The notes under the pieces are model-generated. The model saw only the letters and a program-made list of their open reading frames with translations. It ran no database searches and was not told where the DNA came from. The translations under genes and the position numbers were made by a program. Positions 5,156-41,276 of a DNA stretch of 64,000 nucleotides are shown here, one piece after another (positions within the stretch are counted from its first letter, which is position 1; every line of letters begins with the position of its first letter). This DNA is from an uncultured Gemmatimonadales bacterium (GTDB lineage Bacteria > Gemmatimonadota > Gemmatimonadetes > Longimicrobiales > RSA9). The stretch lies in the NCBI GenBank assembly GCA_963741945.1, contig CAVUKA010000001.1, positions 768,001 to 832,000 on the forward strand. The letters are read 5' to 3'.

Positions 5156-5180
5156 GGGTTCTGTTTGCGGGAGTTGTTGG
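5156..5180 (+). repeat. dispersed 25-bp motif, copy 1 (IS1595 TIR-like)
   Basis: GGGTTCTGTTTGCGGGAGTTGTTGG between convergent genes; preceded by CTGTC as at 14282. Confidence 0.9.
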
Positions 5181-5199
5181 CTGGCCGCCCGCCCACCCG

Positions 5200-5703
5200 C
5201 TACGGCATCGGCAGCGCGCCCCCGCCGCCACGCCACGGGTCGAAGCCGAACGTGTAGTAGTCGCTCGGGCGGCCCGTCACCGCTTCCGCGGCCTCGCCGA
5301 GTCGCGCCACCGTGTCTCCGTCCTCGCCGGCACCTTCCGCCGCGGCCTGGATCGACACCAGCAGCTCGCGCACGTCATCCGGCCGAAGCAGCACGTACGA
5401 CCGAGGGTCCTCCGCCTCGCCGCGCCGGTGGACGACGAGCTCCACCTGGTCCGCGTCCGCCGAGAGCTTCCATACGTCGTTCGTTTTCTTCAGCAGCTTG
5501 TCCGACGTCTTCACCTCGGCGTGCACCGCCTTCACCAGGCGCTTCACGTCCACATCCGCGCCCTCGCCCCTGCGCGCGCCGAAGCGCTGCCCCAGCTCAC
5601 GCGGGTCGCTGTCCTCCGCCCGGGACACCGCCCGGTTCATTAGCCCGCCCACCTGGGCGTAGATCCCGACCACGAGCGGGACGGGGTCGATTACGATCCG
5701 CAT
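5200..5703 (-). CDS. hypothetical protein (167 aa)
   Basis: AAGGAG SD upstream; plausible composition; no family recognised. Confidence 0.7.
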   Translation of the reverse strand: MRIVIDPVPLVVGIYAQVGGLMNRAVSRAEDSDPRELGQRFGARRGEGADVDVKRLVKAVHAEVKTSDKLLKKTNDVWKLSADADQVELVVHRRGEAEDPRSYVLLRPDDVRELLVSIQAAAEGAGEDGDTVARLGEAAEAVTGRPSDYYTFGFDPWRGGGGALPMP

Positions 5704-5977
5704 TGAGACTGTCTCCTTGTTCCGCTTCCATCATCCTTACGACGTCGACCGCCGGACCACGACCACCCCACTGAGGCCGCGCCACCACGGCCACTCCACA
5801 CCGGCCAGTCCCATTCATCGACCGTCCTGCGCCGGCCGCCCCACAGTCTGGCGGCCGACGCCTCGCTCGTCCAGGCAGCGGGGTGGCGCGCGGCACCCCG
5901 CCCGCTCATCTTTTCCTGCCGCCAGTGGGCCCGGACGCGCCGGTTCCGCCCCACGCAAGACTTCTGCAAGGAACAGC

Positions 5978-6418
5978 ATGAAGCGTACACCCGCCCTCGT
6001 CATCGCCTGCGCGGCCGCACTCACGCTGTCGGCGTGCAAGGACGTTGGTCTGGACGTCAACATCCCCGTGGAGGAAGCCGCCACGCGGCCGCAGTCGCAG
6101 CTGATGGCGGCGGTCCACGCTCCGCCGCGAACGCCGGTTCCCCCCATCGTGATCGACGGGCGGCGCTGGGTGGCCTCGGGCTTCCCCCTGCAGCTCGTTG
6201 CGCGGGATCTACAGCCGATCGGCGCCGCGACCGGGGAGACCGTGTACGCGCGGAAATGGGACTCCGCACCCTACGACGAGGTGTTCACCCAGGCCCCGCC
6301 GGACGTGGCCGCTTCGGGAACCACCGCGCTCGAGGCCATCATCCACCCGCGGCCGTGGCTGTCCTACGCGCCGGTGGTGGGAAGGACCGGGCCAGTCCCC
6401 GCTCGGGCCGGAGACTGA
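5978..6418 (+). CDS. hypothetical lipoprotein
   Basis: MKRTPALVIACAAALTLSAC lipobox; AAGGA SD. Confidence 0.8.
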   Translation: MKRTPALVIACAAALTLSACKDVGLDVNIPVEEAATRPQSQLMAAVHAPPRTPVPPIVIDGRRWVASGFPLQLVARDLQPIGAATGETVYARKWDSAPYDEVFTQAPPDVAASGTTALEAIIHPRPWLSYAPVVGRTGPVPARAGD

Positions 6419-6435
6419 CCGCCCGCTGCGGCGGG

Positions 6436-6555
6436 GCCGGGCGGCGCGGAGCCGGGCGGCGGGGGGGCGGGCGGCGCGGGGCCGGGCGGCGCGGGGCCGG
6501 GCGGCGCGGGGCCGGGCGGCGCGGGGCCGGGCGGCGCGGGGCCGGGCGGCGCGGG
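6436..6555. repeat. 15-bp tandem repeat (GCCGGGCGGCGCGGG) x8
   Basis: Five perfect units from 6481 plus three variant units, between convergent genes. Confidence 0.95.
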
Positions 6556-6591
6556 GAAGTCGGCGAGGGGGAGGGCGGGTGGCCGCTCGCG

Positions 6592-6924
6592 CTATGCGCC
6601 AGCCTCGCGCTCGAGCGCCGAGCGGGAGACCGCGTGGTGCGATCCGTGCCACACCACGGCGCCTGAGCGCAGCAACAGCGCCTGCGGCGACGCGTGGCGG
6701 ACGCCGAGTTCCCGCTCGACGGCTCGCGACAGCGGTCGATCGCGAACCACATCCACTTCGTAGATCGGCACGTCCGGGTGTGCTGCGGCGAACGCCAGGA
6801 CTTCGCGGCGAGCCATGGAGGAGACGCCGCACAGTGGGCTGTGCTTGTAGATGAGCGCCAGCGGCTCGCGCAGCGCCTCGGCCAGTCCGCTTTCCGTCGT
6901 CAGCCGCTTCGGCTCCCCAGCCAC
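6592..6924 (-). CDS. ytxJ: YtxJ/BrxC family monothiol redoxin (DUF2847)
   Basis: IYKHSPLCGVS and GVRHASPQALL...VWHGSH motifs. Confidence 0.85.
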   Translation of the reverse strand: MAGEPKRLTTESGLAEALREPLALIYKHSPLCGVSSMARREVLAFAAAHPDVPIYEVDVVRDRPLSRAVERELGVRHASPQALLLRSGAVVWHGSHHAVSRSALEREAGA

Positions 6925-6963
6925 ACGTCCCTCCGCTCTGCGGCGGCGGCCGTCCGGCCGCCC

Positions 6964-7305
6964 TTAGTCGCCGATGTCGAACAGGATGCTGTCGGACGAC
7001 GAGCCGGGTTTCCGCTCGCGCGCGCCACTCCCGGGCTCCGGGTCACCGGAGCCGGGCGGGAGCGTCCTCTCTTCCTGCCGCCGCGCCACCAGCCGCTCGA
7101 GGAAACGTTGCTGGTCCTGCAGGTCGTCGAGGCGCGCCTCGAGGCGCGTGAGCGCGGTTTCGATCCGCTCCATGTCCACGGCCGGCAGCGAGGGCTCCCG
7201 TCGGCTCTCCAGCGTCCGGTGGTCCCGACCGATCCACTGGAGCCCCCGCACGAGCACGAGGACGCCGGCCACGATCGTAAAAACGAACATCATGAATCCG
7301 ATCAC
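6964..7305 (-). CDS. small membrane-anchored coiled-coil protein
   Basis: N-terminal TM helix, then ERIETALTRLEARLDDLQDQQRFLERL. Confidence 0.7.
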   Translation of the reverse strand: MIGFMMFVFTIVAGVLVLVRGLQWIGRDHRTLESRREPSLPAVDMERIETALTRLEARLDDLQDQQRFLERLVARRQEERTLPPGSGDPEPGSGARERKPGSSSDSILFDIGD

Positions 7306-7353
7306 GTTTCCTCCGGCGCTGCGGCTTCCGCTCTCCCGCGTCCGCGGTTCGCG

Positions 7354-7632
7354 CTAGAACAGCTTCCCACCAAGCGACGGCTCCTTGTCCGTGCGCGTGC
7401 CCAGCTTCACGAACGTGGCGATACGCGCGGTCCCTTCCGCGTGCAGCGTCTCGTGAACCCGCTGGATCGCTGCCAGGATGTCGCCGAGCTCGCCTTCCAT
7501 GTTGGTGCCGTTCGCGTGCAGCTCGACGTGCACCCCGGATCCGGCGAGGATCTGGTGGGCCCGCTTCACTTCGGCGCGCACCGACACGCCCGCCCCGATG
7601 GGGATCACCTGTACTTCCGCCGTCGCCTTCAT
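7354..7632 (-). CDS. MTH1187/YkoF thiamine-binding family protein
   Basis: AEVQVIPIG...HANGTNMEGE...RTDKEPSL, 92 aa. Confidence 0.88.
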   Translation of the reverse strand: MKATAEVQVIPIGAGVSVRAEVKRAHQILAGSGVHVELHANGTNMEGELGDILAAIQRVHETLHAEGTARIATFVKLGTRTDKEPSLGGKLF

Positions 7633-7647
7633 CGCCGCACCATCAGC

Positions 7648-7818
7648 TCAGGCGACGGGGGGCGTCAGCACCAGGAGCACCGCCAGCGGCGCCTTCCCGC
7701 CCCCGGGATCCTGGTCCGGTTTCGGCGTCGGGTCCCGTTGCGGGCCCGTTGTGTCCCTGCACGCGGTCACGCCGGCCCCCAGCACGAGGGCCATCGCCAG
7801 CACGAGAGTCCGCTTCAT
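7648..7818 (-). CDS. small lipoprotein (56 aa)
   Basis: MKRTLVLAMALVLGAGVTAC lipobox; ATGA overlap with the upstream DDAH stop. Confidence 0.7.
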   Translation of the reverse strand: MKRTLVLAMALVLGAGVTACRDTTGPQRDPTPKPDQDPGGGKAPLAVLLVLTPPVA

Positions 7819-8624
7819 GCTTCCGCCTCCGCGCGGAAGACGAGACTGCAGCACGTCACACCCGCCTCCGCTTTCTCGAGTTCCGATACATCCACTGAAA
7901 CCTGCCTGGAAACGCCCGCCGCGGCAATCCGGTCCGCGGTCCGCGGATGGCCTGCGGCCAGGAGCACGGCGTCGCCCACGCGCAGCACGTTGGCGGCGAC
8001 GGGCTCCCCCGCGGCCACCTCTACAACGCGCAGGTCGCGGAACGTGCGACGATCCACCCAGTCGGGGTTCAGCACCACCATGTCGTCCGCGGCGACCGAG
8101 ACGGCAGACTTCAGGTGCAGGCAGCCGCGCACCGGGACGCGCCTCACCTGGTACCCGAACGGCTCCAGCGTCTCCTGGAGCTGGCGCGCGCCCTCCAGGT
8201 CGGTCCGCTCCGACGCCCCCACGAACACGAGGTTTCCGACCACCAGCACGTCACCGCCATCGACACGCCCGGGGGCCTCGATGTGGCGAACGGTGCGGTG
8301 GCGCGCCAGCGCCTCCGCCACTCCTGTGACCTCCCCCCTCCGCGAAAGGGCGCCCGGCCGGGTCACGACGGCCACCTCGTCCACCACCACGGCCACATCC
8401 TCGACGAACACGCTGTCGGGGTGATCCGGCGCATCCGGCAGCCGCCGCACTTCACAGCCGAGATCGCGCAGCGCCCGTTCGTACGTCGCGTGCTGGGCGC
8501 GGGCGACCTCGAGGTCGATCGGCTCGCGGGGCAGGTGCGTCAGCTCGCACTCGGCGAGGCGCGGGCTCACCGCGCGCGTGTATGCGATCCACATGGCTCC
8601 CTCCGCTTCCACGTCCGTGCTCAT
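7815..8624 (-). CDS. dimethylarginine dimethylaminohydrolase (DDAH)
   Basis: CELTHLPR, PDSVFVED, RRGEV, DGGDVL, LHLKS, SELEKAEAGVTCCS. Confidence 0.92.
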   Translation of the reverse strand: MSTDVEAEGAMWIAYTRAVSPRLAECELTHLPREPIDLEVARAQHATYERALRDLGCEVRRLPDAPDHPDSVFVEDVAVVVDEVAVVTRPGALSRRGEVTGVAEALARHRTVRHIEAPGRVDGGDVLVVGNLVFVGASERTDLEGARQLQETLEPFGYQVRRVPVRGCLHLKSAVSVAADDMVVLNPDWVDRRTFRDLRVVEVAAGEPVAANVLRVGDAVLLAAGHPRTADRIAAAGVSRQVSVDVSELEKAEAGVTCCSLVFRAEAEA

Positions 8625-9160
8625 CCGCCAGCCGTTAAACGCGCGTCACCCAGCCGGTACACGCTGATGGTCGCGTCGCCCACACGGTGCCGCTCGGCGG
8701 AGCCGGGCAGATGATGGTCGGCGGCGTGCTCCACGGCCAGCACGGTCGCGAATGGGACATCGATCCAGCGCTCCACCAGCCGGTCCGTCTGGCGGGAGCC
8801 GTACGGCGGGTCGGCCAGCACCAGCTCGTAGGCGTGGGGAGAAAGCATGAACGCGAATCGGAGGGCATCGCGCTTGAACACCCGCGCCCGCGATTTCGCG
8901 CGCAGCGCGGCGACGTTCGCCTTCAGCGCGTGCAGCGTCGAGGGATTGTTCTCGACGAAGTCCACCGACGCGGCGCCGCGCGAAAGCGCCTCGAGCCCGA
9001 CGGCCCCCGTCCCGGCGTAGAGCTCCAGCACACGGGCGCCCGCCAGGTCCGGCTGCAGCAGCTCGACCCACCGGTCGCGCACCGCTTCCGCCGTCGGACG
9101 GACCCGTCCGGCCGGGGACGTGAGGTCCGTCCCCGCCCACTTCCCGGCAATGATCCTCAC
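8621..9160 (-). CDS. rsmD: 16S rRNA m2G966 methyltransferase RsmD family
   Basis: MRIIAGKW, VRPT, LELYAGTGAVGLEALSRGA, ADPPY. Confidence 0.9.
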   Translation of the reverse strand: MRIIAGKWAGTDLTSPAGRVRPTAEAVRDRWVELLQPDLAGARVLELYAGTGAVGLEALSRGAASVDFVENNPSTLHALKANVAALRAKSRARVFKRDALRFAFMLSPHAYELVLADPPYGSRQTDRLVERWIDVPFATVLAVEHAADHHLPGSAERHRVGDATISVYRLGDARLTAGG

Positions 9161-9519
9161 CGGGCGCGGAGCCCGTTGCGGTGCAGCGACAGCGCAGCTT
9201 CGAACCGCTCGCGCGCCTCCGCTTCCGTCTCACCTGTCGCCACGCAGCCGGGGAAGCCGTCGGCGTGTGCCGAAAAACCGGTCCGCGTCGCTTCGAGAAC
9301 AGGTGCGGCCTCCGCGTCCGGGTCCACCGGAGGCGCCGCCCCGGCCGCGCGCGAGCGGGCGGCATCGGCCGCCTGCGGGCCCAGCTCGTGGGTGTGCCCC
9401 ACCCAGACGGTGACCACGCCGGGCCTGTCCCCATGGACGTACTGGCGGCAGGCGCCTTCGGTGTCGCCCAGGTACCAGCCGTCGTCCTTCAAGCTCTTCA
9501 GCAGGTGTCGACCTTCCAT
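9157..9519 (-). CDS. HicA-like/HicB-like fusion protein (120 aa)
   Basis: N-half LKDDGWYLGDTEGACRQYVHGDRPGVVTV resembles HicA; C-half VLEATRTGFSAHADGFPGCVATGETEAEARERFEAALSLH resembles HicB; GTGA overlap with rsmD. Confidence 0.8.
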   Translation of the reverse strand: MEGRHLLKSLKDDGWYLGDTEGACRQYVHGDRPGVVTVWVGHTHELGPQAADAARSRAAGAAPPVDPDAEAAPVLEATRTGFSAHADGFPGCVATGETEAEARERFEAALSLHRNGLRAR

Positions 9520-9658
9520 GGTCCGGAATATAGGGGGGCGCCGCACCGATGGGCGAGCCCGGCGCGGCCGGCGGGGAGAGCGTCCGGGGGGCGGGAAGGC
9601 GCCGGGGTTGAAATGCGGGAAGCGGCCGGCGCAGACCGCCACCCGCCGGCAGCCGCGC

Positions 9659-11251
<1,593 letters not shown>

Positions 11252-11292
11252 AGCCCCGGATGGTCGCGGAAACGAAGCTCGAGATCAAGCCA

Positions 11293-12063: not shown

Positions 12064-12165
12064 CGGTATCAATAGCATACAGTATGGTGGCGCACTGCGG
12101 GCCGCCGTTCAAGGCCGACGCCGCCCCACTCGACTCCGCTTTCCTGCGCCGCCACCACGAGCGGC

Positions 12166-12194
12166 TTGCGGCCACGCCCGTGCTGGACTACGCT
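12166..12194 (+). promoter_or_regulatory. putative sigma70 promoter of the cold-shock gene
   Basis: TTGCGG-N17-TACGCT about 115 nt upstream of the csp ATG; a long 5' UTR is typical of csp genes. Confidence 0.4.
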
Positions 12195-12308
12195 GGATGC
12201 GCCGATCGCGGGACCCGGGGAACGGCTCCGGGGTCGCCGCGCGAAGCACGATCCTTGCGACGCTTCCCCGCGACAGTTCACCCACAGCCCACAGGTACAG
12301 AGCAAATC

Positions 12309-12527
12309 ATGGCGCGAGAGACCGGTACAGTCGTGCGATTCATGGACGACAAGGGTTACGGCTTCATCCAGCCCGACAAGGGCGGCAAGGACGTCTTCGT
12401 TCACCACTCCAGCATCGAGGGAAGCGGCTTCAAGTCCCTCGCGCAGGGCGAGCGGGTCGAGTACGAGCTGGTGCAGGATCCGAAGGGTCCGCGGGCAGAG
12501 AACGTCGTCCGAGTGGAAGAGGGCTAA
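12309..12527 (+). CDS. cold-shock protein (CspA family)
   Basis: KGYGFIQP (RNP1), DVFVHHSSI (RNP2), GFKSL, KGPRAENV. Confidence 0.96.
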   Translation: MARETGTVVRFMDDKGYGFIQPDKGGKDVFVHHSSIEGSGFKSLAQGERVEYELVQDPKGPRAENVVRVEEG

Positions 12528-12586
12528 GCTTACAGCCCCGGGCCTGCCTCCGACGTCGGCAGGCCACTTCATCCGCTTCCGCTTTC

Positions 12587-14053: not shown

Positions 14054-14127
14054 CGGCCGGGAGCGACGCCCCCGATACCGGACGTTCCGCGGCGATGATC
14101 GGCCCCCAGCGCATCGCAGGAGCGGCC

Positions 14128-14198
14128 GGGTGCGGCCGGCGAGGCACGGTGCGGCCGGCGAGGCCAAGTGTGGCCGACAAAGTCCGGTGCGGTCTGTC
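14128..14198. repeat. degenerate 19-bp tandem repeat (GGTGCGGCCGGCGAGGCAC) x3-4
   Basis: Two near-identical units followed by two diverged units. Confidence 0.6.
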
Positions 14199-14281: not shown

Positions 14282-15692
14282 GGGTTCTGTTTGCAGGAGT
14301 TGTTGGACCCCTCTTCCGATGATCTCCCATGAGCCTGTGCGGTGGGGTTCTGTTGGCGGGCATTGTTGGGATCACACGACGCGGTCTGCCGCCCCACGCT
14401 CGCAGCACGGAGGAGAATGTCCCCCCTAGCCATGGAAGTGCCCGGCGCGGCGAGGCACAGTGCTCCCCATGGCGCACCGCCCACCCCTTTCCTCACGGAG
14501 CATCCGTGCCGAGCCAGGCACGATCCGACGATGCGCACCAATGCCGCCGTTGGTGCCAACGCCGCACCGCGCTGTCAATCGGCCGCGCTGCGATCTCTTC
14601 CCGCAGCTGCGGCTGCAGTCGATCCCATTCCCGTTCAATGAGTTTCGCCGGACCGCCTTCGGCCATCGACGGCCCTGCCCCCGCTGCGGCGGGATCCGCG
14701 TATACGGGTGGGGCGGATTCCGCGGACGTCGTCGCTTTCGCTGTGTCGCATGCGGCCGCACATTCAGCGACTTCACCGGCACGCCGCTCCAACACCTGAA
14801 ACGCCTGGACCGCTGGCTCCCCTTCTGCGCTGTGTTCGGCATGGGACTGACCGTCCGTCGCACAGCCAGCCTCCTGGGCATCGACCCGACGACATCGTTT
14901 CGCTGGCGACACCGCCTCCTCGGCCCCGTCGTCGCCAGCGAGCATTATCCGCTCTCCGGGTTCGTGGATTGGGGCGATGCCTGGTTCACGTTCTCCGAGA
15001 AGGGCAGCCGAAGGCTCGATCGCCCGGCGAGGCGGCGGGCGCCACCTTTCTGGAGCGGCGGCGAGCCGCGCACATACGTGCTCCTGGCCAACGACAGCCA
15101 GGGGCGCGCCGTTGGGCGGCACGTTGGAGCGCGGCGGCCGGGGCGGACCACGGTGCTGGAGCTCGTGATCCCGCGCGTTGCGCCGGGTACTACGCTGCTC
15201 ACCGAGTGCGGACCGTTCGGGGACGGCGCCCGCATCGCCCGGCTCACGGGATTGCCCTGGCGCTGGCGACGCAAGCTCGATCGCGCCACCGCCCCATCCC
15301 TCGAGCCGCTCCGGGTCTACACCTCCCGCCTGAAACGGTGGATGCGGCCATTTCACGGGGTCGCGACGCGCTACCTCGATCACTACCTCGGGTGGTTCAG
15401 GCTCGTCGACGGTCCGCTCGTTGAAGCCGGCGACCCGGTCCCGGCGGCGCTCATCCTGTCCTCCGGCCGCTTCCCCTGACCTGCCGGCAGGGTCCTCGGC
15501 GGCGGATGCCGGATCCGAGGATTGGAGGGCGGCCAGAGGGGTTCAGGTCGCCCGCCAGGCACGCCAGCAGGTTGGATCGGCCGCCAGCGTCGGGGTCCAG
15601 GCCGCGCACCCCACAATTCCCGCGAACAGAACCCCATGGGGCTGATCGCCGACGCTGCCCCACTGCCCCAACAACTCCCGCCAACAGAACCC
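14282..15692. mobile_element. IS1595-family (ISPna2-like) element or domesticated derivative with doubled terminal inverted repeats
   Basis: 25-bp motif at 14282-14306 and 14345-14369 (+), and at 15610-15634 and 15668-15692 (-), flanking a transposase-like ORF; no target-site duplication seen. Confidence 0.8.
14541..15479 (+). CDS. IS1595-family transposase-like protein, catalytic residues apparently altered
   Basis: Zn ribbon CPRC...FRCVACGRTFSDFTGTPL; HTH TVRRTASLLGIDPTTSFRWRHR; C-terminal SRLKRWMRPFHGVATRYLDHYLGWFR; start may be 14469. Confidence 0.88.
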   Translation: MPPLVPTPHRAVNRPRCDLFPQLRLQSIPFPFNEFRRTAFGHRRPCPRCGGIRVYGWGGFRGRRRFRCVACGRTFSDFTGTPLQHLKRLDRWLPFCAVFGMGLTVRRTASLLGIDPTTSFRWRHRLLGPVVASEHYPLSGFVDWGDAWFTFSEKGSRRLDRPARRRAPPFWSGGEPRTYVLLANDSQGRAVGRHVGARRPGRTTVLELVIPRVAPGTTLLTECGPFGDGARIARLTGLPWRWRRKLDRATAPSLEPLRVYTSRLKRWMRPFHGVATRYLDHYLGWFRLVDGPLVEAGDPVPAALILSSGRFP

Positions 15693-19845: not shown

Positions 19846-19862
19846 ACCGGGGCGCGCGCCCG

Positions 19863-19948
19863 GCGCTCTGTTCGCGGGAGTTGTTGGACACGCGCGCTCC
19901 GAGGTCGGACACGGCCGGCGGCGGGGCGCTGTTCGCGGGAGTTGTTGG
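19863..19948 (+). repeat. tandem pair of the 25-bp dispersed motif
   Basis: GCGCTCTGTTCGCGGGAGTTGTTGG (19863-19887) and GGGCGCTGTTCGCGGGAGTTGTTGG (19924-19948), 61-bp period, between convergent genes. Confidence 0.9.
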
Positions 19949-19964
19949 GCCACCCATCACCCCC

Positions 19965-20711
19965 TCACGGCGCCACCGCTCCGTAAAGCCGCGGCAGATC
20001 CTGCACCGTCACGATTCCCAGCAGTTTCTCCGATGACGCGCCGGTGGACGTGACGAGCACCGCCTCCAGCCGCCGGCCGCGCGCCGGCGCTTCCGTGAAC
20101 AGTCGCACCACGTCCGCCACCAGGCGGTCGCGCGACACGAGGTCGAAGCGCTTCACCCCGTTCCCGAACTCCAGGACCTCCCGCACGGGCTCCTCGTGAA
20201 GGGTGTCAAGCGGCCCGGCCAGCTTCGTGGCGATCCAGCGCGCAATGGCATGGGCGGTGAGCAGGCCGATCAGCTCGTCGCCGGCGTACACGGGCAGTCG
20301 CGTGAACCCGCCCTTCACCATCCGCTCCGCGGCTTCCCCGATCGGGTCCTCCGCCGAGCAGGTCACCACCGGTCGGGACATGGCCTCGTCGATCCGAGGG
20401 GGGTGGACGAGCAGGGCGACGATGGCGTCGAGCCGCTCCACCGTCGCACCGTGCGGCTCCGCGATCACGTACCCGCCGCCCCTGTCGTGGACGATGGCGT
20501 TCCGCAGGTCGGCGAACTCCAGCAGGTCCTCTTCGACCGCCCGCACGACGACGTTGCGTTTCGCCGCCTGCCTCACCATCCAGCGGAACGAGTCCTTGGA
20601 CGACGTCCCCAGCATCCGCTTCAACGCGTCTTCCGCCTGTGCGAACGCGATCAGGAATCGATCAGAATTCGTCTCGGCCACGGCCCCCTCACCGTCGGTT
20701 TCGGCAATCAC
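19965..20711 (-). CDS. CBS-pair protein with N-terminal HEPN-like (RxxxxH) domain
   Basis: LRNAIVH in a helical N-terminus; MSRPVVTC...FTRLPVY...LIGLLT and LLGIVTVQDL CBS repeats. Confidence 0.85.
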   Translation of the reverse strand: MIAETDGEGAVAETNSDRFLIAFAQAEDALKRMLGTSSKDSFRWMVRQAAKRNVVVRAVEEDLLEFADLRNAIVHDRGGGYVIAEPHGATVERLDAIVALLVHPPRIDEAMSRPVVTCSAEDPIGEAAERMVKGGFTRLPVYAGDELIGLLTAHAIARWIATKLAGPLDTLHEEPVREVLEFGNGVKRFDLVSRDRLVADVVRLFTEAPARGRRLEAVLVTSTGASSEKLLGIVTVQDLPRLYGAVAP

Positions 20712-20742
20712 GGCCGCAACATACGACGCCCGACGCCGTCGG

Positions 20743-21537
20743 TCACGGCAGCTTCAAGCCCACCCACTCGGCTGGGCCGGCAGTGGCGGGGGCGACGAGG
20801 AGGACCACGCGCCCACCCCGGAACGCCGGCCGAAGCCGATTCCCCAGCTGGACGACGCCGCGACGCACCGCTGCCCCCGTCGCAAGGACCCGGACCTCGT
20901 CGACGCCGCGGGCCCGGATCTCGGCCACCGTGTGGAGACCGCCGAACGGGTCCGGCCAGGGCCAGCCGCGACGATGGACGACGCGCCCATCGTCGCCAGT
21001 GAGGCGGAGCCCGGCGGCGGCGAGCGCACCGATGACGCCATCCTCGGTGCCGCCGAGCCCTTCCAGCTCGAGCCCGAGCTGTCGGGCCAGGCGGCGGGCT
21101 TCAGCCTGGGGGACCGGCTCGCGTTGGCAGCGGCGACCGAACGCGACGAGCGGACAGGGGACCGGCGGGGCGGGATCGGGCGGCGCAGCCAACAACTCCC
21201 GCGAACAGAGCTCGACGGGGGCCACCACCACCCCCGGATCGCTGCCCTCAGGCGCGAACTCCCGGATGGCGTTCCGGAGGAACTCCATGAGCACGGCCGG
21301 CAGTGGGGCCTCCAGCGTCCGACGGTGCTCCCCCGTCGCGGTCACGTCGATGGACGCTGCCCCGTTCTGGCTGGTGAAGGGGATGCGTGGATCCTTGAGC
21401 AGCTGGTGGCGGAGGACGATGTCGGCTTCGAACCCCGCCGGCAGAGTCTCGGCAATGCTGCGCGCCAGCTGGTTTGTCCCCGGCGCCCCGATGATGTCGG
21501 TGTCGTCGAGCCCGATGATCAGCTTCCGGCTAATCAA
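20743..21537 (-). CDS. TiaS-core-like (DUF1743-type) hypothetical protein
   Basis: [12 protein letters not shown]...[25 protein letters not shown]; probable TTG start overlapping the upstream stop. Confidence 0.75.
21189..21213 (-). repeat. 25-bp dispersed motif inside a CDS
   Basis: GAGCTCTGTTCGCGGGAGTTGTTGG, read as ELCSRELL in the 20743..21537 protein. Confidence 0.85.
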
Positions 21538-22483
21538 TGGGTTTGAGCCCTGCGAGGATCGCCTCCCGTCGTGGCTCGAGGAAAGGCGGAAGCACGACCT
21601 TCTCGCCCAGCGTATCAGGGCTCTCGTCCACGGCGAAGCCGGGGCCGTCCGTCGCGATCTCGAAGAGGACGCCGTTGGGCTCACGAAAATACAGGCTGCG
21701 GAACCAGAAACGGTCCACGGGCCCGGAGTTGGGAACGCCCATCTCCCCCAACCGCCCGACCCACTGCTCGTACTCCTGCGTGTCCGGGGTGCGGAACGCC
21801 ACGTGGTGCACGCCGCCCGCGCCTTGCCGGGACGGGGGGAGGTCGGGCTGGACGGCCACGTGGAGCTCGCCCTGCGGGCCGTCGGCGCCCATCCGAAACA
21901 CGTGGACGCCGGCGGGTCCATGGATCTCGTCCGCGTAATCCCGCGCCAGCTCCATGCCGAGCACCTGCGTCAGCAGGACATTGGTGGGCTGGAGCGTTGG
22001 CGCGCTCATGACGATCGGCCCGAGCCCCCGGATCTGGTGCTCCGCGGGCACCGGGCAGCCGTCCCAGTACGCGGGCGCATCGCCGGCGCCGCCGTCGTCC
22101 ACCAGCGAGAGCCGCTGCCCTTCGGGGTCGTCGAAGTCCATGGTCGCGCGGCCGTCCCGCTCCACGATGTCGCCGTGGATCACACCGCTGCGGTCCAGGT
22201 GCTCGAGCCACCACTCGAGCGATTCGGCGCCGTCCACCCGCATGTGCGTTCGGACGAGGCTGCGCGTGCCGCGGCGCTCCCGGGGCACCGGCCAGTCGAA
22301 GAAGGTGATGTCCGTACCGGGATTCCCACGGCCGTCGGCGTAGAAGAGGTGGTAGGCGGACACGTCGTCCTGATTCACGCTCCGCTTCACCAGGCGGAGG
22401 CCGAGGACTCGCGTGTAGAAGCGATAGTTCTCCCGGACGTCTGCGGTGATGGCCGTGAGGTGGTGGACGCCGCGCAGCTCCAT
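21530..22483 (-). CDS. ring-cleaving dioxygenase/glyoxalase (MhqO-like VOC)
   Basis: [59 protein letters not shown]. Confidence 0.93.
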
Positions 22484-26132: not shown

Positions 26133-27212
26133 ATGAGCGATGGGAGAATGGGGCAGGCGGGCGACGGCGAAGGCGCAGGGGGCGCCGCCAACAATTCCCG
26201 CGAACAGAACCCCAGTGATCTGGGCCGCCGCGCGTTTGTGCGGGCGGCTGCTGGCGCGGCGGCGACACTGACCGGCGCCGGCCTGCTGTCCGCGCCGCTA
26301 CTGGGCGCCAGCACCAGCCGCGGGCGCCGCGCCGCCGGCCACCGTCCCCCGGCGCTCGCGCCCGAGCCGTGGGGCAGTCTCGTCCCCGTCGCCGAAGACG
26401 CCTGGGCAGTGATCTCGACGCCGCTGGCGTCCGGCCCCGAAGCCCGGCGCACGGTGTGCAACGGCGGGCTGGTCGCCGGCAAGGACGCGGTGCTCGCGAT
26501 CGAGGGGTTCGCCTCGCCCGCCGGCGCCACGTGGCTCGCGGCGGAAGCTGAGCGGCTGGTCGGCCGTCCCCCCACGCATGTCGTGCTGACACATTACCAC
26601 GCCGATCATACGGGCGGCACCGTGGGCTACGTCCGCGACGGCGCGCCGCCCACGATGCTCGCGACCGAGACCACTCGCCGCCTGACGGCCCGGCACGAGG
26701 CCGAGCTGCGCGATGGCGCCAGGGCCGCTCCGCCGGTGCTGCTCCCCGACCACCTGATCCCGGATCAGGGCGATCCCGTCGAGCTCGACCTGGGCGGCCG
26801 GCACGTCCGGCTCGTGGGGCGCGCGGGGCACACGCCCAGCGATCTGGTGGTCGAGCTCGGCGACGCCCCCGTGATCTTCACGGGAGACCTGGTCTGGATC
26901 GGCATGTTCCCGAACTACGTGGACGCCATCCCCTCCCTGCTCTCCCGCAACGTGCGGGCGTTGCGCGCGCAGAACGCCGAGACCTACGTCTCCGGCCACG
27001 GGACGCTGGGCACGCCCGCAGATCTCGACCGCTACATCGCCCTGCTGGACCATGTCGAGACCGCAGCCCGCCGTGCCGTCGACGCCGGCCTCCCCGTAGA
27101 ACAGGCCGCGGCCGATTATACGATCCCGGCGTCGCTCGGGTCGTGGCACATGTTCTCCCCGCGCTACGCCGAGATGGCGTTCAGGGCCTGGGCCCGGGAG
27201 CTGGCGGACTAG
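26133..27212 (+). CDS. MBL-fold metallo-hydrolase with Tat-like signal
   Basis: LGRRAFV twin-arginine motif; THYHADHTGG, GHTPSD, FTGDL, SGHG; start uncertain. Confidence 0.88.
   Translation: MSDGRMGQAGDGEGAGGAANNSREQNPSDLGRRAFVRAAAGAAATLTGAGLLSAPLLGASTSRGRRAAGHRPPALAPEPWGSLVPVAEDAWAVISTPLASGPEARRTVCNGGLVAGKDAVLAIEGFASPAGATWLAAEAERLVGRPPTHVVLTHYHADHTGGTVGYVRDGAPPTMLATETTRRLTARHEAELRDGARAAPPVLLPDHLIPDQGDPVELDLGGRHVRLVGRAGHTPSDLVVELGDAPVIFTGDLVWIGMFPNYVDAIPSLLSRNVRALRAQNAETYVSGHGTLGTPADLDRYIALLDHVETAARRAVDAGLPVEQAAADYTIPASLGSWHMFSPRYAEMAFRAWARELAD
26188..26212 (-). repeat. 25-bp dispersed motif at the 5' end of the MBL gene
   Basis: CCAACAATTCCCGCGAACAGAACCC followed by CAGTGA, the same flank as the copy at 15668. 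Confidence 0.9.
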
Positions 27213-27898: not shown

Positions 27899-29887
27899 AT
27901 GATCTCCGTATCGAACCTGTCCAAGTCCTTCGGCGCGCAGACGCTCTTCGAGGGGGCCAGCTTCCAGCTGAACCCCGGGGAGCGGTACGGGCTGGTGGGC
28001 GCCAACGGCTCCGGCAAGACCACGCTGCTGCGGATCCTCGCGGGCGACGAGGATCCGTCGTCGGGTTCCGTCGCCATCCCGTCACGCGCGAACCTCGGCG
28101 TCCTCCGACAGGACCAGTTCCTGTACGAGGACGAGGAGATCCTGGCCGTGGCCATGCGCGGCAACGCGGAGCTGTGGAGCGCCATCGTGGAGAAGGAGCG
28201 GCTGCTCGCCCGCGCGTCCGAGGACTTCGACGCGGGGCGGTACGGCCGGCTCGAGGAGACCATCGAGCGGCACGATGGCTACGCCGCCGAGGCCAGGGCA
28301 GCGGAGATCCTGGAGGGTCTCGGCATTCCAGCGGAAGTCCATCGTCGTCCGCTCTCCACGCTCTCGGGCGGTTTCAAGCTGCGCGTGCTCCTCGCCCAGG
28401 CGCTGGCGGGAAAGCCGGACGCGCTGCTGCTCGATGAGCCCACCAACCACCTGGACATCGTCTCGATCCGCTGGCTCGAGAAGTTCCTCCGCGATTTCTC
28501 CGGGCCCGCGCTGGTGATCTCCCACGACCACCGCTTCCTCGACAATGTGGTCAGCCAGATCCTGGACGTGGACTATCGTACGGTCACGCTCTATCGGGGC
28601 AATTACAGCGACTTCATCGAAGCGAAGCGGGACGAGCGGGAGCGGCGGGAGAAGGAGATCGAGTCGAGGGAGAAGGAGATCGCGCACCACCAGCTCTTCG
28701 CGGACCGGTTCCGCGCCAAGGCGAGCAAGGCCCGACAGGCCCAGAGCAAGCTGAGGCTCATCGAGAAGAAGGCCGGAGAGCTGGAGCCGCTCGCGCCCTC
28801 GTCGCGCCGTTACCCGACATTCCGTTTCCACCCTCGCCGCCCGCCCGGGCGCGAGGTCCTGGAGGCCACGGGGGTCGAGAAGTCGTATGGCGAGAACCGG
28901 GTGCTCCACGGTGTCGACCTCCAGGTCCGACGAGGCGACCGGCTGGCCATCATCGGGCCGAACGGCATCGGCAAGTCCACGCTCCTGAAGATCCTGGTGG
29001 GCGAGCTCGAGCCGGACGCGGGGGAAGTCGAGTGGGGCTATGCCACGCAGCCGGGCTATTTCGCGCAGGACCACCACGAGCAACTGGGCGAGGAAGCCAT
29101 CACGGCACAGCAGTGGATCGCGCACCACGCACCGGGGCTCACCACGAGCTATCTGCGCGGCGCCATGGGCATGGTCCTGTTCTCTGGCGACGAGGCGGAG
29201 AAGCGTCTGTCGGCGCTCTCCGGCGGCGAGGCCGCCCGCCTCGCCTTCTGCCGCCTGGCCCTCGCCCGCCCCAACGTCCTCGTCCTCGATGAGCCGACCA
29301 ATCACCTGGACATGGAATCCATCGAGGCGCTCGTGGACGGCCTGCGCGAGTTCGATGGCACCCTGATCCTCGTCTCTCACGACCGCTGGTTCGTGAGCCA
29401 GCTCGCCGACCGGATCGTCGAGATCTCCCGCGACGGCATCCGGGACTATCGCGGCACGTACGAGGAGTACGTCCACGCCCTCGGCGATGACCACCTGGAC
29501 GCCGATGCCGTCCTGGAGCAGGCGCGCTCGGGAAAGCGGAAGGAGAAGGCCGGGAAAGCCGCGGGCGAGAACGGCGCGCGGCAGTCGCCATCGGCCCGCA
29601 CGTCCAGAGACCGCCGGGGCGACGCCGCGAGCCCCCCGCCGCTGCCGCTGAACCCGTTCAAGCTGAAGCTGCGCCGCGACGAGATCACGGAGCGGATCCA
29701 CGCCGCGGAGACTCGCCTGGCCGAGATCGAGCGCGCGTTCACCGATCCCGGCCTGTACTCCGCGGATCGAGTCGATGAGGTGCGGGCGCTCGAGGAGGAG
29801 CGCGAGGCTGTCGGCTCCCGGGTGGAAGCGCTCATGGTGGAATGGGAGGACGTGGAGAAGCGGCTGGAAGAGTCCGATCAGCCGTAG
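27899..29887 (+). CDS. ABC-F family ATP-binding protein
   Basis: Two ABC domains (GANGSGKTT, GPNGIGKST), LSGG, LDEPTNHLD x2, no TM helices, coiled-coil tail. Confidence 0.95.
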   Translation: MISVSNLSKSFGAQTLFEGASFQLNPGERYGLVGANGSGKTTLLRILAGDEDPSSGSVAIPSRANLGVLRQDQFLYEDEEILAVAMRGNAELWSAIVEKERLLARASEDFDAGRYGRLEETIERHDGYAAEARAAEILEGLGIPAEVHRRPLSTLSGGFKLRVLLAQALAGKPDALLLDEPTNHLDIVSIRWLEKFLRDFSGPALVISHDHRFLDNVVSQILDVDYRTVTLYRGNYSDFIEAKRDERERREKEIESREKEIAHHQLFADRFRAKASKARQAQSKLRLIEKKAGELEPLAPSSRRYPTFRFHPRRPPGREVLEATGVEKSYGENRVLHGVDLQVRRGDRLAIIGPNGIGKSTLLKILVGELEPDAGEVEWGYATQPGYFAQDHHEQLGEEAITAQQWIAHHAPGLTTSYLRGAMGMVLFSGDEAEKRLSALSGGEAARLAFCRLALARPNVLVLDEPTNHLDMESIEALVDGLREFDGTLILVSHDRWFVSQLADRIVEISRDGIRDYRGTYEEYVHALGDDHLDADAVLEQARSGKRKEKAGKAAGENGARQSPSARTSRDRRGDAASPPPLPLNPFKLKLRRDEITERIHAAETRLAEIERAFTDPGLYSADRVDEVRALEEEREAVGSRVEALMVEWEDVEKRLEESDQP

Positions 29888-30230
29888 CCCGGTCCCGGCC
29901 GCCGCGTGAACGAAAGCGGGAGCAGCCGGGCCAGCCGGAGCGGCGGGCGGGATGGCCGCCGAAGGTCCGTGGGCTCGGGCCGGGGATCGCCGATCGGGTC
30001 CAGGAACCAGATGCCCGTCCCCGCCAGCGGATCGGCGGGCTCACGGTCGTCGAGCCAGACCACGCGCAGCGGCCGCCGGGGATCGGGGCGCAGCGCGCCC
30101 AGACCCGCCGCTTCCACCACGCCGGCCACCGCCGCCGCCAGCATCCCCCGCCAGATCTTCCGCTGCTTCACGCTCGCCTCCGGTCCCGGACTTCGCCCGC
30201 CCCAAGGAAGCTAACGCCACCCGATCGGGA

Positions 30231-30857
30231 CTACAGCCGGGCAATGGCGACGAAGTGACAGACGCTCCCGCCGAGCACGAAGAGGTGCCAGATCACGTGC
30301 GCGTACCGAATCCCATCCAGGTGGTACAGGAGCGTACCGGCCGTGTAGATCACGCCCCCCGCCACCAGCCACGCCAGCGTCGCTGGCGCCAGCTGGTGGA
30401 TCAGCGGCAGCCCCACCAGCAGCCCCAGCCACGCCATTCCCAGGTACATCACCGTCGAGAAGCGCGGGAAGCGGTCCAGGAAGTTCAGCTTGAAGACGAT
30501 GCCCGCCGCAGCCATCCCCCACATCGCCACCAGCAGCGTCCAACCCCAGGGCCGCCGCAGCCGCAGCAGCAGGAAGGGCGTGTACGACCCCGCGATCAGC
30601 AGGTAGATGGCCGAGTGGTCCAGCACACGGAGCGCCTGCTTCAGACCGCGCGACCGCGCGGCATGATAGAGCGTGGACGCCGTGTAGAGCAGCACCAGCG
30701 TGGCCCCGTACACGGTGTACGCCAGCAGCCGCCACCCGTCTCCCCGGCTCACCGCCTCGCCCACCAGGTAGCCGGCGCCCACCGCCGCGATCAGCGCCCC
30801 CGCACCGTGCGTGACGCTGTGGAAGAGCTCCTCCCGCTCCGTGTAGAATCCGTCCAT
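30231..30857 (-). CDS. hemolysin III / PAQR family membrane protein
   Basis: EE..HSVTHG, STLYH, DHSAIYLLIAGSYTP, HVIWHLFV. Confidence 0.93.
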   Translation of the reverse strand: MDGFYTEREELFHSVTHGAGALIAAVGAGYLVGEAVSRGDGWRLLAYTVYGATLVLLYTASTLYHAARSRGLKQALRVLDHSAIYLLIAGSYTPFLLLRLRRPWGWTLLVAMWGMAAAGIVFKLNFLDRFPRFSTVMYLGMAWLGLLVGLPLIHQLAPATLAWLVAGGVIYTAGTLLYHLDGIRYAHVIWHLFVLGGSVCHFVAIARL

Positions 30858-32267: not shown

Positions 32268-32336
32268 TGCGCCGACGGCACGGACCTGGCCGGGGTAGTA
32301 TGTTGGAAACGCCAGTTCAACCGGGCCGGGGGCGCC

Positions 32337-35222: not shown

Positions 35223-35353
35223 CGCCCGCTGCGCCGGGTGACCGGCGAACGCTGACGCCGCGGCATCGGCTGACGGGCGGGCTCGTGCGCCGAGCCCCCG
35301 CCCCCGCCCACGGTTGCGGTGCGCGGCCGGAATGTGGACATTCAGGGCTTCAT

Positions 35354-38122: not shown

Positions 38123-38131
38123 ACGGCGCGA

Positions 38132-38788
38132 TCAGGGGCCCGGGCGGGGCAGCCGGCCCGAGCGCTGCGCGGTCCGGGCCTCCTCGATGGCGCGGCGGAC
38201 TTCACGCGGCCCGAGGTCCAGCGCCTCGCCCGCCCGATCGAGCAGCCTGCTCTCCTGCGGGTGGAGGTCGCCATCCGCGGTGCAGACGAGGTACGCGGCC
38301 GATACCAGGCTACGCCGCATGCGCATGGGGACCAGGAGGGCGAGCCGCGCCAGTCGCGGTATCGGCTCACCCCACTCGGCGCGAGCATGCGTCAGGAGCT
38401 CAGCGACTTCCATGTCGCCCAGCGGCTTCCCCGTGTACCAGCGGAGCACGGACCCGGCCACCTCCCGCTCCGATTCCCGTACGGCCGCGTCGGACAGCAT
38501 GACGGCCGCCATCACGGAAACGAGAGCCACTTCGTCCTCGGCCAGAACGGGGGCGATGCGCCGGGAGTCGGCGGCGGCGAAGGCGTGGCCACATTCGTCG
38601 CACGCATTGAAGAGCGCGGGTCGTCCGAAGCGGAACAGCGGTCGCCCGAGCGCGGTGAGGTGACGCTGGAGTATGACCCGCGAGCAGCCGCGCGGCGCCC
38701 CGCAGCGTGGACAGTCGAAGCTGCTCGCCGCCTTTTCTTCCCGGCGCCAGACCGTGCCCACCAGATCGCCGCCCCCTGAGCGCTCCAT
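38132..38788 (-). CDS. zinc-ribbon + TerB-like domain protein
   Basis: CPRC...CDEC; helical domain with ADGDLHPQESRLL. Confidence 0.75.
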   Translation of the reverse strand: MERSGGGDLVGTVWRREEKAASSFDCPRCGAPRGCSRVILQRHLTALGRPLFRFGRPALFNACDECGHAFAAADSRRIAPVLAEDEVALVSVMAAVMLSDAAVRESEREVAGSVLRWYTGKPLGDMEVAELLTHARAEWGEPIPRLARLALLVPMRMRRSLVSAAYLVCTADGDLHPQESRLLDRAGEALDLGPREVRRAIEEARTAQRSGRLPRPGP

Positions 38789-38946
38789 CCGACAAAGGTG
38801 CTCGGTGGCGCTGTGAGAGTCCAGGGGCTGGGCGTGCGGAACCCTCCGGCGTGCACTAGAGTACGAACCCCGTGCCGCGGCCCCGGTCGCGGAGCGATGT
38901 CGTACGCGCCGGACGCCGGCGCGCCCAGCTCCCGAGGATGCATTAC

Positions 38947-41136
38947 ATGTCGCGAACCAGATTGCTGTCGATCCCATTGGTGCTGCTGGCGGGGGCGTGT
39001 GCCCACGCCGCTCCGCCCACGACCCCCCCACAGGCCCCTGTCGCCTCGCACACGCCCTCTGCCGAGGCGGCGCGGGAAAACCCGTTCTTCGAACCGAGCC
39101 CGCTGCCGTTCCAGGCTCCGCCTTTCGACCGTATCCGCGACACCGACTACATGCCGGCGCTGGAGCGGGGAATGGCGCAGCACCTGGCGGAGGTGGAAGC
39201 GATCGCGGCCCAGGCTGACGCGCCGACGTTCGACAATACGATCGTGGCACTCGAGCGCTCGGGCGCCCTGCTGAATCGCGTGTCGAAAGTGTTCTTCTCC
39301 ATCACCTCGGCGAACACCGATGACACGCTCCAGGCCGTGCTGACCGAAGTCGCGCCCAGGTTGGCCGCCCACAGCGACGCCATCTACCTGAACGCGAAGC
39401 TGTTCGACCGCATCCGCACGCTCCACGACCAGCGGGATTCCATCGGGCTGAATGCCGAGCAGAAGCGCGTGGTCGACGAGTATTACAGCGACTTCGTCCG
39501 CTCGGGCGCGCTCCTGACGGAGATGCAGAAGGACACGCTGCGCGCGCTCAACCAGGAAGAGTCGACGCTGTCCACGGAGTTCCAGAACCGCCTCCTCGCC
39601 GGCACCAAGGCCGCGGCGCTGGTGGTCCGCGACAGGGAGATGCTCGCCGGCCTGAGCGATGCCGAGATCGCGGCAGCCGCCAGCGCGGCCGAGCAGCGGG
39701 GTCTGGATGGGGCCTGGGTCCTGCCGCTGCAGAACACCACCCAGCAGCCCGCCCAGGCGTCCCTCACGGATCGGTCCGTGCGGCAGCAGCTGTTCGAGGC
39801 GTCGACCCGGCGGGCGGAGCACGGTGACGCAAACGACACGCGCTCGCTCATCCAGCGGCTGGCGCAGGAGCGGGCGTTGCGCGCGAAGCTCCTCGGCTAC
39901 CCGGACTACGCCGCGTACGCGCTCGAGCCGCAGATGGCGGGGACGCCGGAGGCGGCCATCGGGCTGATGAAGCGGCTGGTCCCCGCGGCCACGGCGAAGG
40001 CGAGGGCCGAAGCGGCGGACATGCAGGCGCTCATCGATCAGCAGGGTGGCGATTTCCAGCTCCAGCCGTGGGACTGGCAGTACTACTCGGAGCAGGTCCG
40101 GAAGGCGAAGTACGACCTGGATGAGTCCCAGATCAAGCCGTACTTCGAGCTGAACCGAGTCCTGGAGGATGGCGTCTTCTACGCCGCCAACAAGCTCTAC
40201 GGCATCACGTTCCAGGAGCGGCACGACATTCCGGTCTACGCCCCCGACGTCCGGGTCTTCCAGGTCAATGACGCCGACGGCTCGCCGCTCGCGCTCTTCT
40301 ATTGCGACTACTTCAAGCGCGACAACAAGAGTGGCGGGGCGTGGATGGACACGTTCGTGGACCAGTCGGGACTGATGGGAACGAAGCCGGTGGTCTTCAA
40401 CGTGGCGAATTTCGCCAGGCCCGCGGCGGGACAGCCGGCGCTGCTGAGCTACGACGACGTGACCACAATGTTTCACGAATTCGGTCACGCGCTCCACGGA
40501 ATGTTCTCGAACGTGACCTATCCGAAGCTGTCCGGGACCAGCGTCCCCCGCGACTTCGTGGAGTTCCCGTCCCAGTTCAACGAGAAATGGGCCATGGACC
40601 CGGACGTGTTTGCGCACTACGCGCGGCACTACCGGACGGGCGAGCCCATGCCGCAGGCGCTGGTGGCCAAGATCAAGAAGGCGGGCACGTTCAATCAGGG
40701 CTTCGCCACCACGGAGTACCTGGCGGCTGCGCTCCTCGACATGGCGTGGCACACGCTGCCGGCGGATGCTCCCCGACAGGATGTGGACGCCTTCGAAGCG
40801 AAGGCGCTGGCCGACGCCGGGTTCGACGTGCCCCAGGTGCCGCCACGCTACCGGACGACGTACTTCGCCCACATCTGGGAGGGCGGTTACGCGGCCGGTT
40901 ATTACGCGTACATCTGGGCCGAGGTGCTGGACCACGACGCATTCGCCTGGTTCCAGGAGCACGGTGGCATGACCCGCGCCAACGGGCAGCGCTACCGTGA
41001 CATGGTCCTTTCGAAGGGCGGAACGGAAGAGGCGGGAGCCATGTACCGGGCGTTCCGGGGACGGGACCCGAGCATCGAGCCGCTGCTCGAGGCACGCGGT
41101 CTGGAAGCGAACACCGCTTCGGCCGGAGTGCACTGA
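38947..41136 (+). CDS. dcp: peptidyl-dipeptidase Dcp (M3), lipoprotein
   Basis: LAGAC lipobox; KSGGAWM, FHEFGHALH, PRDFVEFPSQ, GYYAYIWAEVLD. Confidence 0.95.
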   Translation: MSRTRLLSIPLVLLAGACAHAAPPTTPPQAPVASHTPSAEAARENPFFEPSPLPFQAPPFDRIRDTDYMPALERGMAQHLAEVEAIAAQADAPTFDNTIVALERSGALLNRVSKVFFSITSANTDDTLQAVLTEVAPRLAAHSDAIYLNAKLFDRIRTLHDQRDSIGLNAEQKRVVDEYYSDFVRSGALLTEMQKDTLRALNQEESTLSTEFQNRLLAGTKAAALVVRDREMLAGLSDAEIAAAASAAEQRGLDGAWVLPLQNTTQQPAQASLTDRSVRQQLFEASTRRAEHGDANDTRSLIQRLAQERALRAKLLGYPDYAAYALEPQMAGTPEAAIGLMKRLVPAATAKARAEAADMQALIDQQGGDFQLQPWDWQYYSEQVRKAKYDLDESQIKPYFELNRVLEDGVFYAANKLYGITFQERHDIPVYAPDVRVFQVNDADGSPLALFYCDYFKRDNKSGGAWMDTFVDQSGLMGTKPVVFNVANFARPAAGQPALLSYDDVTTMFHEFGHALHGMFSNVTYPKLSGTSVPRDFVEFPSQFNEKWAMDPDVFAHYARHYRTGEPMPQALVAKIKKAGTFNQGFATTEYLAAALLDMAWHTLPADAPRQDVDAFEAKALADAGFDVPQVPPRYRTTYFAHIWEGGYAAGYYAYIWAEVLDHDAFAWFQEHGGMTRANGQRYRDMVLSKGGTEEAGAMYRAFRGRDPSIEPLLEARGLEANTASAGVH

Positions 41137-41203
41137 CGCGCGGGCCGGGGCCACCGCTCTGGACGTTGCCCACGAGGTTCGCGTAGAAGGCACTTACGCG
41201 CGC

Positions 41204-41242
41204 GCCGGGGCCCCGGTTGCAACCGGGGCCCCGGCTTTCGTT
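41204..41242 (+). terminator. Rho-independent terminator (perfect 32-bp palindrome)
   Basis: GCCGGGGCCCCGGTTGCAACCGGGGCCCCGGC followed by TTTCGTT. Confidence 0.75.
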
Positions 41243-41251
41243 CTCGTCCGC

Positions 41252-41276
41252 GCGCTCTGTTTGCGGGAGTTGTTGG
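41252..41276 (+). repeat. 25-bp dispersed motif
   Basis: GCGCTCTGTTTGCGGGAGTTGTTGG between convergent genes. Confidence 0.9.

Follow-up and report, generated by a model that had tools for sequence, protein, structure and literature searches.

A putative inactivated IS1595-lineage transposase and its orphan end repeats near the gene in a Gemmatimonadota genome

We analyzed a 64,000-nucleotide stretch of DNA from an uncultured Gemmatimonadales bacterium (the window; C1:768001-832000 of the assembly G000, GenBank GCA_963741945.1), in which ten copies of a 25-bp motif accompany gene A, a homologue of the transposases of IS1595-lineage insertion sequences (IS). The best-supported account of these data is that of a relic element, in which an inactivated IS1595 transposase was kept as a DNA-binding protein, and orphan copies of the element's ends are confined to the vicinity of the gene. 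From the sequence data, the probability of this reading is roughly 0.55. The gene A protein would no longer transpose and would survive as a sequence-specific DNA-binding protein that recognizes the ends. By analogy, its most likely role would be that of an autoregulator or end-binding repressor of the IS1 InsA kind, and the orphan ends would be insertions that persisted where they did little harm, in terminator-proximal convergent gaps and in tolerant coding segments.

An earlier reading of the window from its letters alone (the original prediction) had listed ten copies of the motif. A search of the window with up to three mismatches recovered all of them at the predicted positions and on the predicted strands, with 0-3 mismatches to the 25-mer (Table 1), and 0 of 100 dinucleotide-preserving shuffles of the window gave a match. 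Aligned in one orientation, the copies have in common a core of about 25 nt, which is non-palindromic as had been supposed, and their flanks are unrelated. The content of the window is one gene-bearing unit with doubled ends (14282-15692) and six orphan ends at five loci. As predicted, the four copies 14282+, 14345+, 15610- and 15668- bracket the transposase-like open reading frame (ORF) in inverted orientation. This ORF is open from a GTG at 14460 (14460-15479), and the database call (P0001) begins at 14541. The arms of the unit, 25-28 nt long, are 84-93% complementary, and terminal inverted repeats are therefore present. The six other copies stand without a transposase, as had been said; the further statement that none of them has a nearby inverted partner was wrong for 19924(+)/21189(-), which form an inverted pair. 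Three of the five orphan loci, with the four copies 5156, 19863/19924 and 41252, lie in convergent gaps, as predicted, and two (21189 and 26188) lie inside coding sequence. By its tip, the 26188 copy resembles the outer right end of the gene-bearing unit and the 5156 copy the outer left end, whose tip it carries, and the remaining orphan tips are of the GCGCT or GAGCT type, as in elements of other genera.

The G000 assembly (4.09 Mb in 8 contigs, about 70% GC, 96.7% complete) was then scanned with the 20-nt core at up to three mismatches. Only 12 copies were found, all within 117 kb (C1:773161-889669), and only two of them lie outside the window, as an inverted pair 53 bp apart at C1:889597/889650. 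The original prediction had proposed a genome-wide, high-copy family; this part of it fails because copies are rare outside the window, the very outcome that it had named as speaking against itself. A generic family pattern gave exactly 20 sites in G000, 12 of the gene A type and 8 of the type of a paralogue on contig C3, and the reversed control of this pattern gave 0 sites. The chance of finding seven independent loci within 117 kb of 4.09 Mb is about 4e-9, and that of finding the four paralogue loci within 70 kb is about 2e-5.

Repetitive extragenic palindromic (REP) sequences are partnered with RAYT (REP-associated tyrosine transposase), a domesticated TnpA of the IS200/IS605 type, and their repeat unit is an imperfect palindrome. 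A genome-wide repeat system of this kind had been the model of the original prediction, and two features are common to both cases: purifying selection maintains a gene that derives from a transposase and has repeats from its own ends on either side, and some of the orphan copies lie in 3' intergenic gaps. However, REP repeats are hairpins that occur in hundreds throughout the genome, whereas here the solo units are non-palindromic, form no hairpins, number 12 per genome (20 with the sister variant) and stay near the gene. RAYT is an HUH/Y1 enzyme, whereas the gene A protein is of the DDE (Asp-Asp-Glu) lineage and predicted to be inactive; no HUH/Y1 domain was found in it, Pfam and NCBIfam giving IS1595/IS1-type matches alone. 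Moreover, the gene copy number reaches 7 in some relatives. Single-copy vertical inheritance fits the C3 paralogue, for which the sister species G001 has a syntenic counterpart with an upstream pair; gene A is absent at the G001 syntenic site. Copy number, enzyme class and repeat form exclude the REP/RAYT reading, to which we assign next to no probability. The likeness to a domesticated gene can be kept in part: gene A has lost the catalytic triad, and its paralogue occupies a syntenic position in G001. The working DDE enzyme that went with this likeness cannot be kept.

To define the motif further, 72 genomes of the same bacterial family, one per species (Longimicrobiales/Gemmatimonadota by source names), were compared. 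With up to two mismatches, the motif is present in 36 of these relatives at 0-25 copies per genome, and a homologue of the gene in 40. Both occur together in 33 genomes, the motif alone in 3, the gene alone in 7 and neither in 29, in tallies whose members are kin and not independent. Two unpublished genomes are counted among them, G017 with both and G076 with the motif alone; this co-occurrence across taxa had been among the checks put forward with the prediction. Inverted motif copies flank the scanned homologues L016, L017, L019-L024, L026, L028, L033, L034 and L044. Tip and core variants differ from element to element and agree between the left and right ends of any one element. Direct end copies recur at a spacing of 50-63 bp, as 2+2 in G000, 3+3 in G019 and 4+1 in G064. 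Since inverted motif copies flank the gene homologues in relatives and motif and gene co-occur, these results showed that the 25-bp motif forms the terminal inverted repeats, and hence the putative transposase-binding ends, of an ISPna2-type element of the IS1595 lineage that is specific to this family of Gemmatimonadota (Longimicrobiales).

The closest clade with intact catalytic residues, which is ISPna2-like, served as a positive control. It is represented by the loci L058-L069 of Pseudoduganella buxea, which carry the NCBI name "IS1595 family transposase." This IS is present in at least seven full copies of about 1.1 kb with 90-94% identity. It starts with GGCGCTGT and finishes with ...GGAACTTGTTGG, and these ends align with the window motif (GGCGCTGT...GGAACTTGTTGG vs G(G/C)G(T/C)TCTGTT.GCGGGAGTTGTTGG). 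The prediction had linked the motif to the ends of an IS1595-type gene, and this was borne out both in the relatives, where it flanks the homologues, and by this alignment with the end of an active sister IS. The two clades share the Zn-ribbon, the helix-turn-helix (HTH) and the RNase-H domain, with 33-39% identity from end to end between the P. buxea proteins and the gene A protein, as well as an element length of about 1.1 kb and alignable terminal repeats. The P. buxea IS inserts into A/T-rich 8-mers, in many cases the T-run of a terminator hairpin, in keeping with the location of orphans in convergent gaps; in a genome of 70% GC, such a preference would place relic ends in convergent gaps. 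In contrast, the active clade has D-D-N-K (36/36), many copies that are 90-94% identical and, in five of the seven P. buxea copies, a perfect 8-bp duplication placed exactly at the tip. The clade of the window has none of these, and it shows doubled or tripled ends at 50-63 bp spacing.

On gene A, the Pfam profile DDE_Tnp_IS1595 (PF12762) scored 23 bits (cut-off 27) and Zn_ribbon_IS1595 19.8 bits (cut-off 25.4), both below threshold, and HTH_23 gave a weak match. The NCBIfam model NF033547 was just above its cut-off of 75 with 76.3 bits for gene A and below it with 37.5 for the C3 paralogue, and NF050000 (IS1/IS1595 Zn domain) reached 31.6 bits against a cut-off of 28. Full-length alignment with PF12762-bearing proteins gave E-values of about 1e-41 to 1e-43, and the nearest homologue anywhere is 47-50% identical.

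The catalytic residues were surveyed in an alignment of the 120 best database homologues, 84 of them closest to gene A and 36 from the sister clade, whose members with a named source are Pseudomonadota. The D-D-N triad was found in 0/84 of the closest homologues vs 36/36 of the sister-clade proteins, which have D, D and N in the contexts ADETY, TDG and NVNAYHSRFK together with a downstream K/R. At the three catalytic columns gene A has G, E and R; of the sequences of this dead clade, 23, 5, and 2% have an acidic residue there. The four Cys of its Zn-ribbon are 95-100% conserved, and TxFRWRH, SxKG, an RxxRRR stretch and RFRGVATRYLxxYLxW are 88-100% conserved. An AlphaFold2 model of the gene A protein, built with 109 sequences, had a mean predicted local distance difference test score (pLDDT) of 87.1 and a predicted template modeling score (pTM) of 0.84, with a beta-beta-beta-alpha-beta-alpha-beta core, and its best PDB matches in Foldseek were Mos1, the intasomes of human immunodeficiency virus (HIV) and prototype foamy virus (PFV), ISCth4 and Sleeping Beauty. 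By alignment and model, the gene A clade is predicted to retain the transposase fold, with its active site lost. The part of PMC8101967 that treats the IS1595 family, citing Siguier 2009, gives its defining features; in the gene A unit, the Zn domain and the terminal inverted repeats are present, and the triad and the 8-bp duplication are absent.

An ordinary IS that is still mobile, with MITEs (miniature inverted-repeat transposable elements) and solo ends as its derivatives, could also produce such a cluster by local hopping, provided that the transposase acts through other residues or that the ends are mobilized in trans by a working transposase, either a visiting one or one encoded in unassembled DNA. 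MITE-type pairs do exist at C1:889597/889650, on C3 (four pairs) and in relatives (77-190 bp), G000 and G001 differ in which sites they have, each species' sites carrying its own variant, and four acidic positions are conserved specifically in the dead clade; with 96.7% completeness in 8 contigs, some repeats may be missing from the assembly. However, apart from the missing triad, an 8/8 target duplication was found in 0/13 gene-bearing units, the gene A unit included, vs 5/7 copies of the active control. No genome examined showed a pair of near-identical gene copies; relatives have up to seven copies, and the seven of G048 are mutually diverged. Some of the orphan sites add 0 or only 30 bp. 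Mobilization in trans by a canonical IS1595 transposase was considered and rejected: a profile search gave no other PF12762 match in G000, only 4/72 relatives have one, of which the two of full length fall into a different subgroup and have no similar end. With no cognate intact transposase in G000 or the 72 relatives, a hidden catalytic source would be needed, and we consider a mobile IS unlikely. Inactivity, on the other hand, is consistent with the 0/13 duplications, the diverged G048 copies, a nearest homologue of 47-50% identity and the lack of an intact cognate transposase.

Bacterial MITEs, of which the Correia elements are an example, are gene-less short inverted pairs of IS ends, and such pairs occur here as well: in G000 at 73-74 bp, outside the window, and in relatives at a spacing of 77-190 bp. 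In contrast to MITEs, no target duplications were found here, the interiors are unconserved, and many ends are single or direct tandem copies; all six orphans of the window are single or direct copies, unlike the IR-spacer-IR (inverted repeat, IR) units of MITEs. With respect to the possibility raised with the original prediction, that the copies resolve into ordinary MITE ends with target duplications, several copies elsewhere form inverted pairs of the ordinary MITE type.

The region is syntenic with contig C2 of G001. The gene A motif was not found in G001, and gene A and the adjacent MFS gene are replaced there by a different membrane-protein-like ORF. Compared with the syntenic sites, G000 has about 90 extra bp at 5156, about 107 extra bp at 19863/19924 and a clean in-frame gain of 30 bp at 26188. 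At 21189 there is no net gain, the conserved anchors being 111 nt apart in G000 and 115 nt in G001, and at 41252 there is little or no net length change (202 nt in G000, 182 nt in G001). No target duplications were seen at the sites compared. In public contigs (three runs of one study, about 4x cover, with no RNA data set listed), no empty-site or excision joints were found, a result that at this cover counts neither way.

G000 contains a second cognate pair of gene and site. The paralogue of gene A (C3:645595-646419) is 46% identical to it, and its motif variant, CTGTCACCGGGAACTGTTGG, occurs in eight copies that form four inverted pairs, all within 70 kb (C3:618107-688061). The paralogue is syntenic with the sole homologue of G001, and an inverted pair stands at the same place upstream of it in both species. 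The spacer of this pair is not conserved, and the same two between-species substitutions are found in both arms. These results showed that the paralogue and its upstream inverted pair were inherited vertically between G000 and G001. In the 4.3 Mb of G001, the variant occurs in five copies, which are the upstream pair and an array of three 58-bp tandem units 11 kb away (C1:624253-624388, L047). The array lies between two same-strand genes and has one motif copy per unit and conserved spacers; no motif was found at the corresponding site in G000. For all three cognate variants, every copy lies within 117, 70, and 11 kb of its own gene.

Such an arrangement might also be expected of functional operators or architectural sites, kept near the gene by selection, with the protein as a local regulator or DNA-bridging factor. 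The sharply conserved cores with unconserved flanks, the retention of the paralogue's upstream pair at an orthologous position with identical changes in its two arms, the confinement of three variants and the pairs that lie just upstream of gene starts would all fit, but the orphan loci of the window are poor places for operators (3/5 at convergent 3' ends, 2/5 in coding sequence), they are not orthologous in G001, and their neighbors are unrelated housekeeping genes. We regard operators as improbable, even more so than a mobile IS. On C3, two of the inverted pairs enclose segments, of about 210 and 500 bp, that lie immediately upstream of ORFs, which would suit an inverton system in which the protein flips short non-coding upstream segments. 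Yet no catalytic residues are left, most window sites are solo or direct repeats, and no inverted-orientation joints were found in the public contigs, whose cover is only about 4x, so that inversion is very hard to credit.

Several observations weigh against a retained, inactive DNA-binding protein with passively persisting ends. Both the loss of transposition and the DNA binding are predictions from sequence. Four acidic positions (residues 77, 90, 134 and 153 of P0001) are conserved in the dead clade and absent in the sister clade, so a relocated active site is possible, and the gene A protein has an Asp beside the first catalytic column and a Glu at the second. The domestication of the paralogue is supported by the ratio of nonsynonymous to synonymous divergence (dN/dS) of the G000/G001 orthologues, about 0.23 from the Zn-ribbon onward, but this value is rough because dS, at about 1.5, is near saturation. 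The orphan sites are non-orthologous between G000 and G001, each with its own species variant (8 in G000, 5 in G001), which looks like spread after the protein was already dead and is not explained by a relic element. The 10 copies of G043 share an identical core of 26-36 nt with unrelated flanks, a pattern more readily accounted for by a small unit that is mobile or selected than by passive decay. Clustering is also not universal: among the matches listed, those within 100 kb of a gene are 7/16 in G013, 4/9 in G046 and 1/5 in G047. A tentative alternative, to which we give about the same low standing as to the mobile IS, is that the dead clade is under selection together with its end and still seeds variant-matched ends within about 100 kb of the gene. 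Such seeding would mean a relocated active site or a non-transposase route in cis, e.g., templated patch insertion or conversion at synapsed ends.

Transposase-derived proteins that bind relic element ends are represented by IS1 InsA and by SETMAR with the Hsmar1/MADE1 ends. Under the relic-element account, the gene A protein would resemble them in using a transposase-derived Zn finger and HTH module to recognize ends without catalysis. It would differ in being a full-length protein whose dead catalytic domain is conserved throughout the clade, and its predicted sites are few and local. To our knowledge, inactivated transposases acting as DNA-binding proteins are well known in eukaryotes and seldom documented for bacterial DDE elements. 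In the passages searched, a review of prokaryotic exaptation (PMC8987985) makes no mention of DDE or IS1595, and our literature search found no report of a dead IS1595 clade or of this repeat in Gemmatimonadota. An active clade beside a dead sister clade, a conserved site of 20-25 nt and two cognate gene-site pairs in one genome make the system directly testable. If the local spread of sites is ongoing, it would point to a mechanism by which short sites bound by a protein are copied in the absence of a working transposase, and if variant-matched seeding is true, gene and sites would represent a type of protein-and-site system not yet described in bacteria. For annotation, the label "IS1595 family transposase" in Gemmatimonadota probably refers mostly to non-catalytic proteins.

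The features of the window are listed in Table 1, with a gene map based on codon-position GC and Pfam. The neighboring genes are unrelated housekeeping genes, including an RNase D-like gene, RF3, MFS, a peptidase, a deaminase, a CBS protein, a TonB receptor and ABC-F.

Table 1. Gene A and the copies of the end repeat in the window (window coordinates).
Feature	Position	Strand	Remarks
Gene A, IS1595-lineage transposase homologue	14541..15479	+	Zn-ribbon, HTH, RNase-H-like domain; without D-D-N triad
Orphan end repeat, site 1	5156..5180	+	Convergent gap 4726-5199
Outer left end repeat of gene-bearing unit	14282..14306	+	
Inner left end repeat	14345..14369	+	63 bp downstream of outer left
Inner right end repeat	15610..15634	-	
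Outer right end repeat	15668..15692	-	58 bp from inner right
Orphan repeat, first of direct pair with 61-bp spacing	19863..19887	+	Convergent gap 19846-19964
Orphan repeat, second of direct pair	19924..19948	+	Convergent gap 19846-19964
Orphan repeat in variable linker of conserved gene, ORF 20743-21921 (-)	21189..21213	-	
Orphan repeat in N-terminal coding region of metallo-beta-lactamase-fold gene	26188..26212	-	Clean 30-bp in-frame insertion
Orphan repeat in convergent gap 41137-41304	41252..41276	+	Directly after GC-rich hairpin, then T-rich run

The 26188 copy stands ahead of an RR-containing, signal-like segment. In G000, the gene around the 21189 copy has an uninterrupted reading frame; in its G001 counterpart (reverse complement of L011-L013, about 29258-30426) the two conserved halves are out of frame with each other and joined by a linker that has 4 nt more, which suggests a frameshift or an assembly error. 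The public contigs contained one low-depth joint from 19929 to 9858. Relative to the window, a contig of run X1, at a depth of about 4x, has differences at 15631, 15646 and 15652 and a loss of 2 nt at 15658, in and next to the spacer that separates the two right-end copies, which suggests a strain variant.

On C3, an ORF of 130 aa ending in RCC (G000:C3:645164-645556, - strand) begins with an ATG that overlaps the stop codon of the paralogue, and its central part is conserved in G001. One pair arm on the same contig overlaps a possible N-terminal extension of a secreted-protein-like ORF. At the G043 loci L036-L044, longer flanks (114-166 nt, 78-92%) are common to some pairs of copies only, suggesting several subfamilies of orphan ends.

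A CRISPR-like reading (clustered regularly interspaced short palindromic repeats) of the repeats spaced at 57-63 bp was rejected, as they form inverted sets around a transposase homologue and the 58-bp units of G001 include conserved spacers, making a plain tandem repeat. The stretch 19924-21213 was rejected as a second element copy, its interior being unrelated to the gene A unit and consisting of host genes that are present in G001 too. Both 14345-15634 and 19924-21213 span exactly 1,290 bp with unrelated interiors. Finally, the interval that separates the MFS gene from the left end of the element contains a 19-bp unit repeated three times in tandem (14116-14191), with 71-76% identity to the reference copy.

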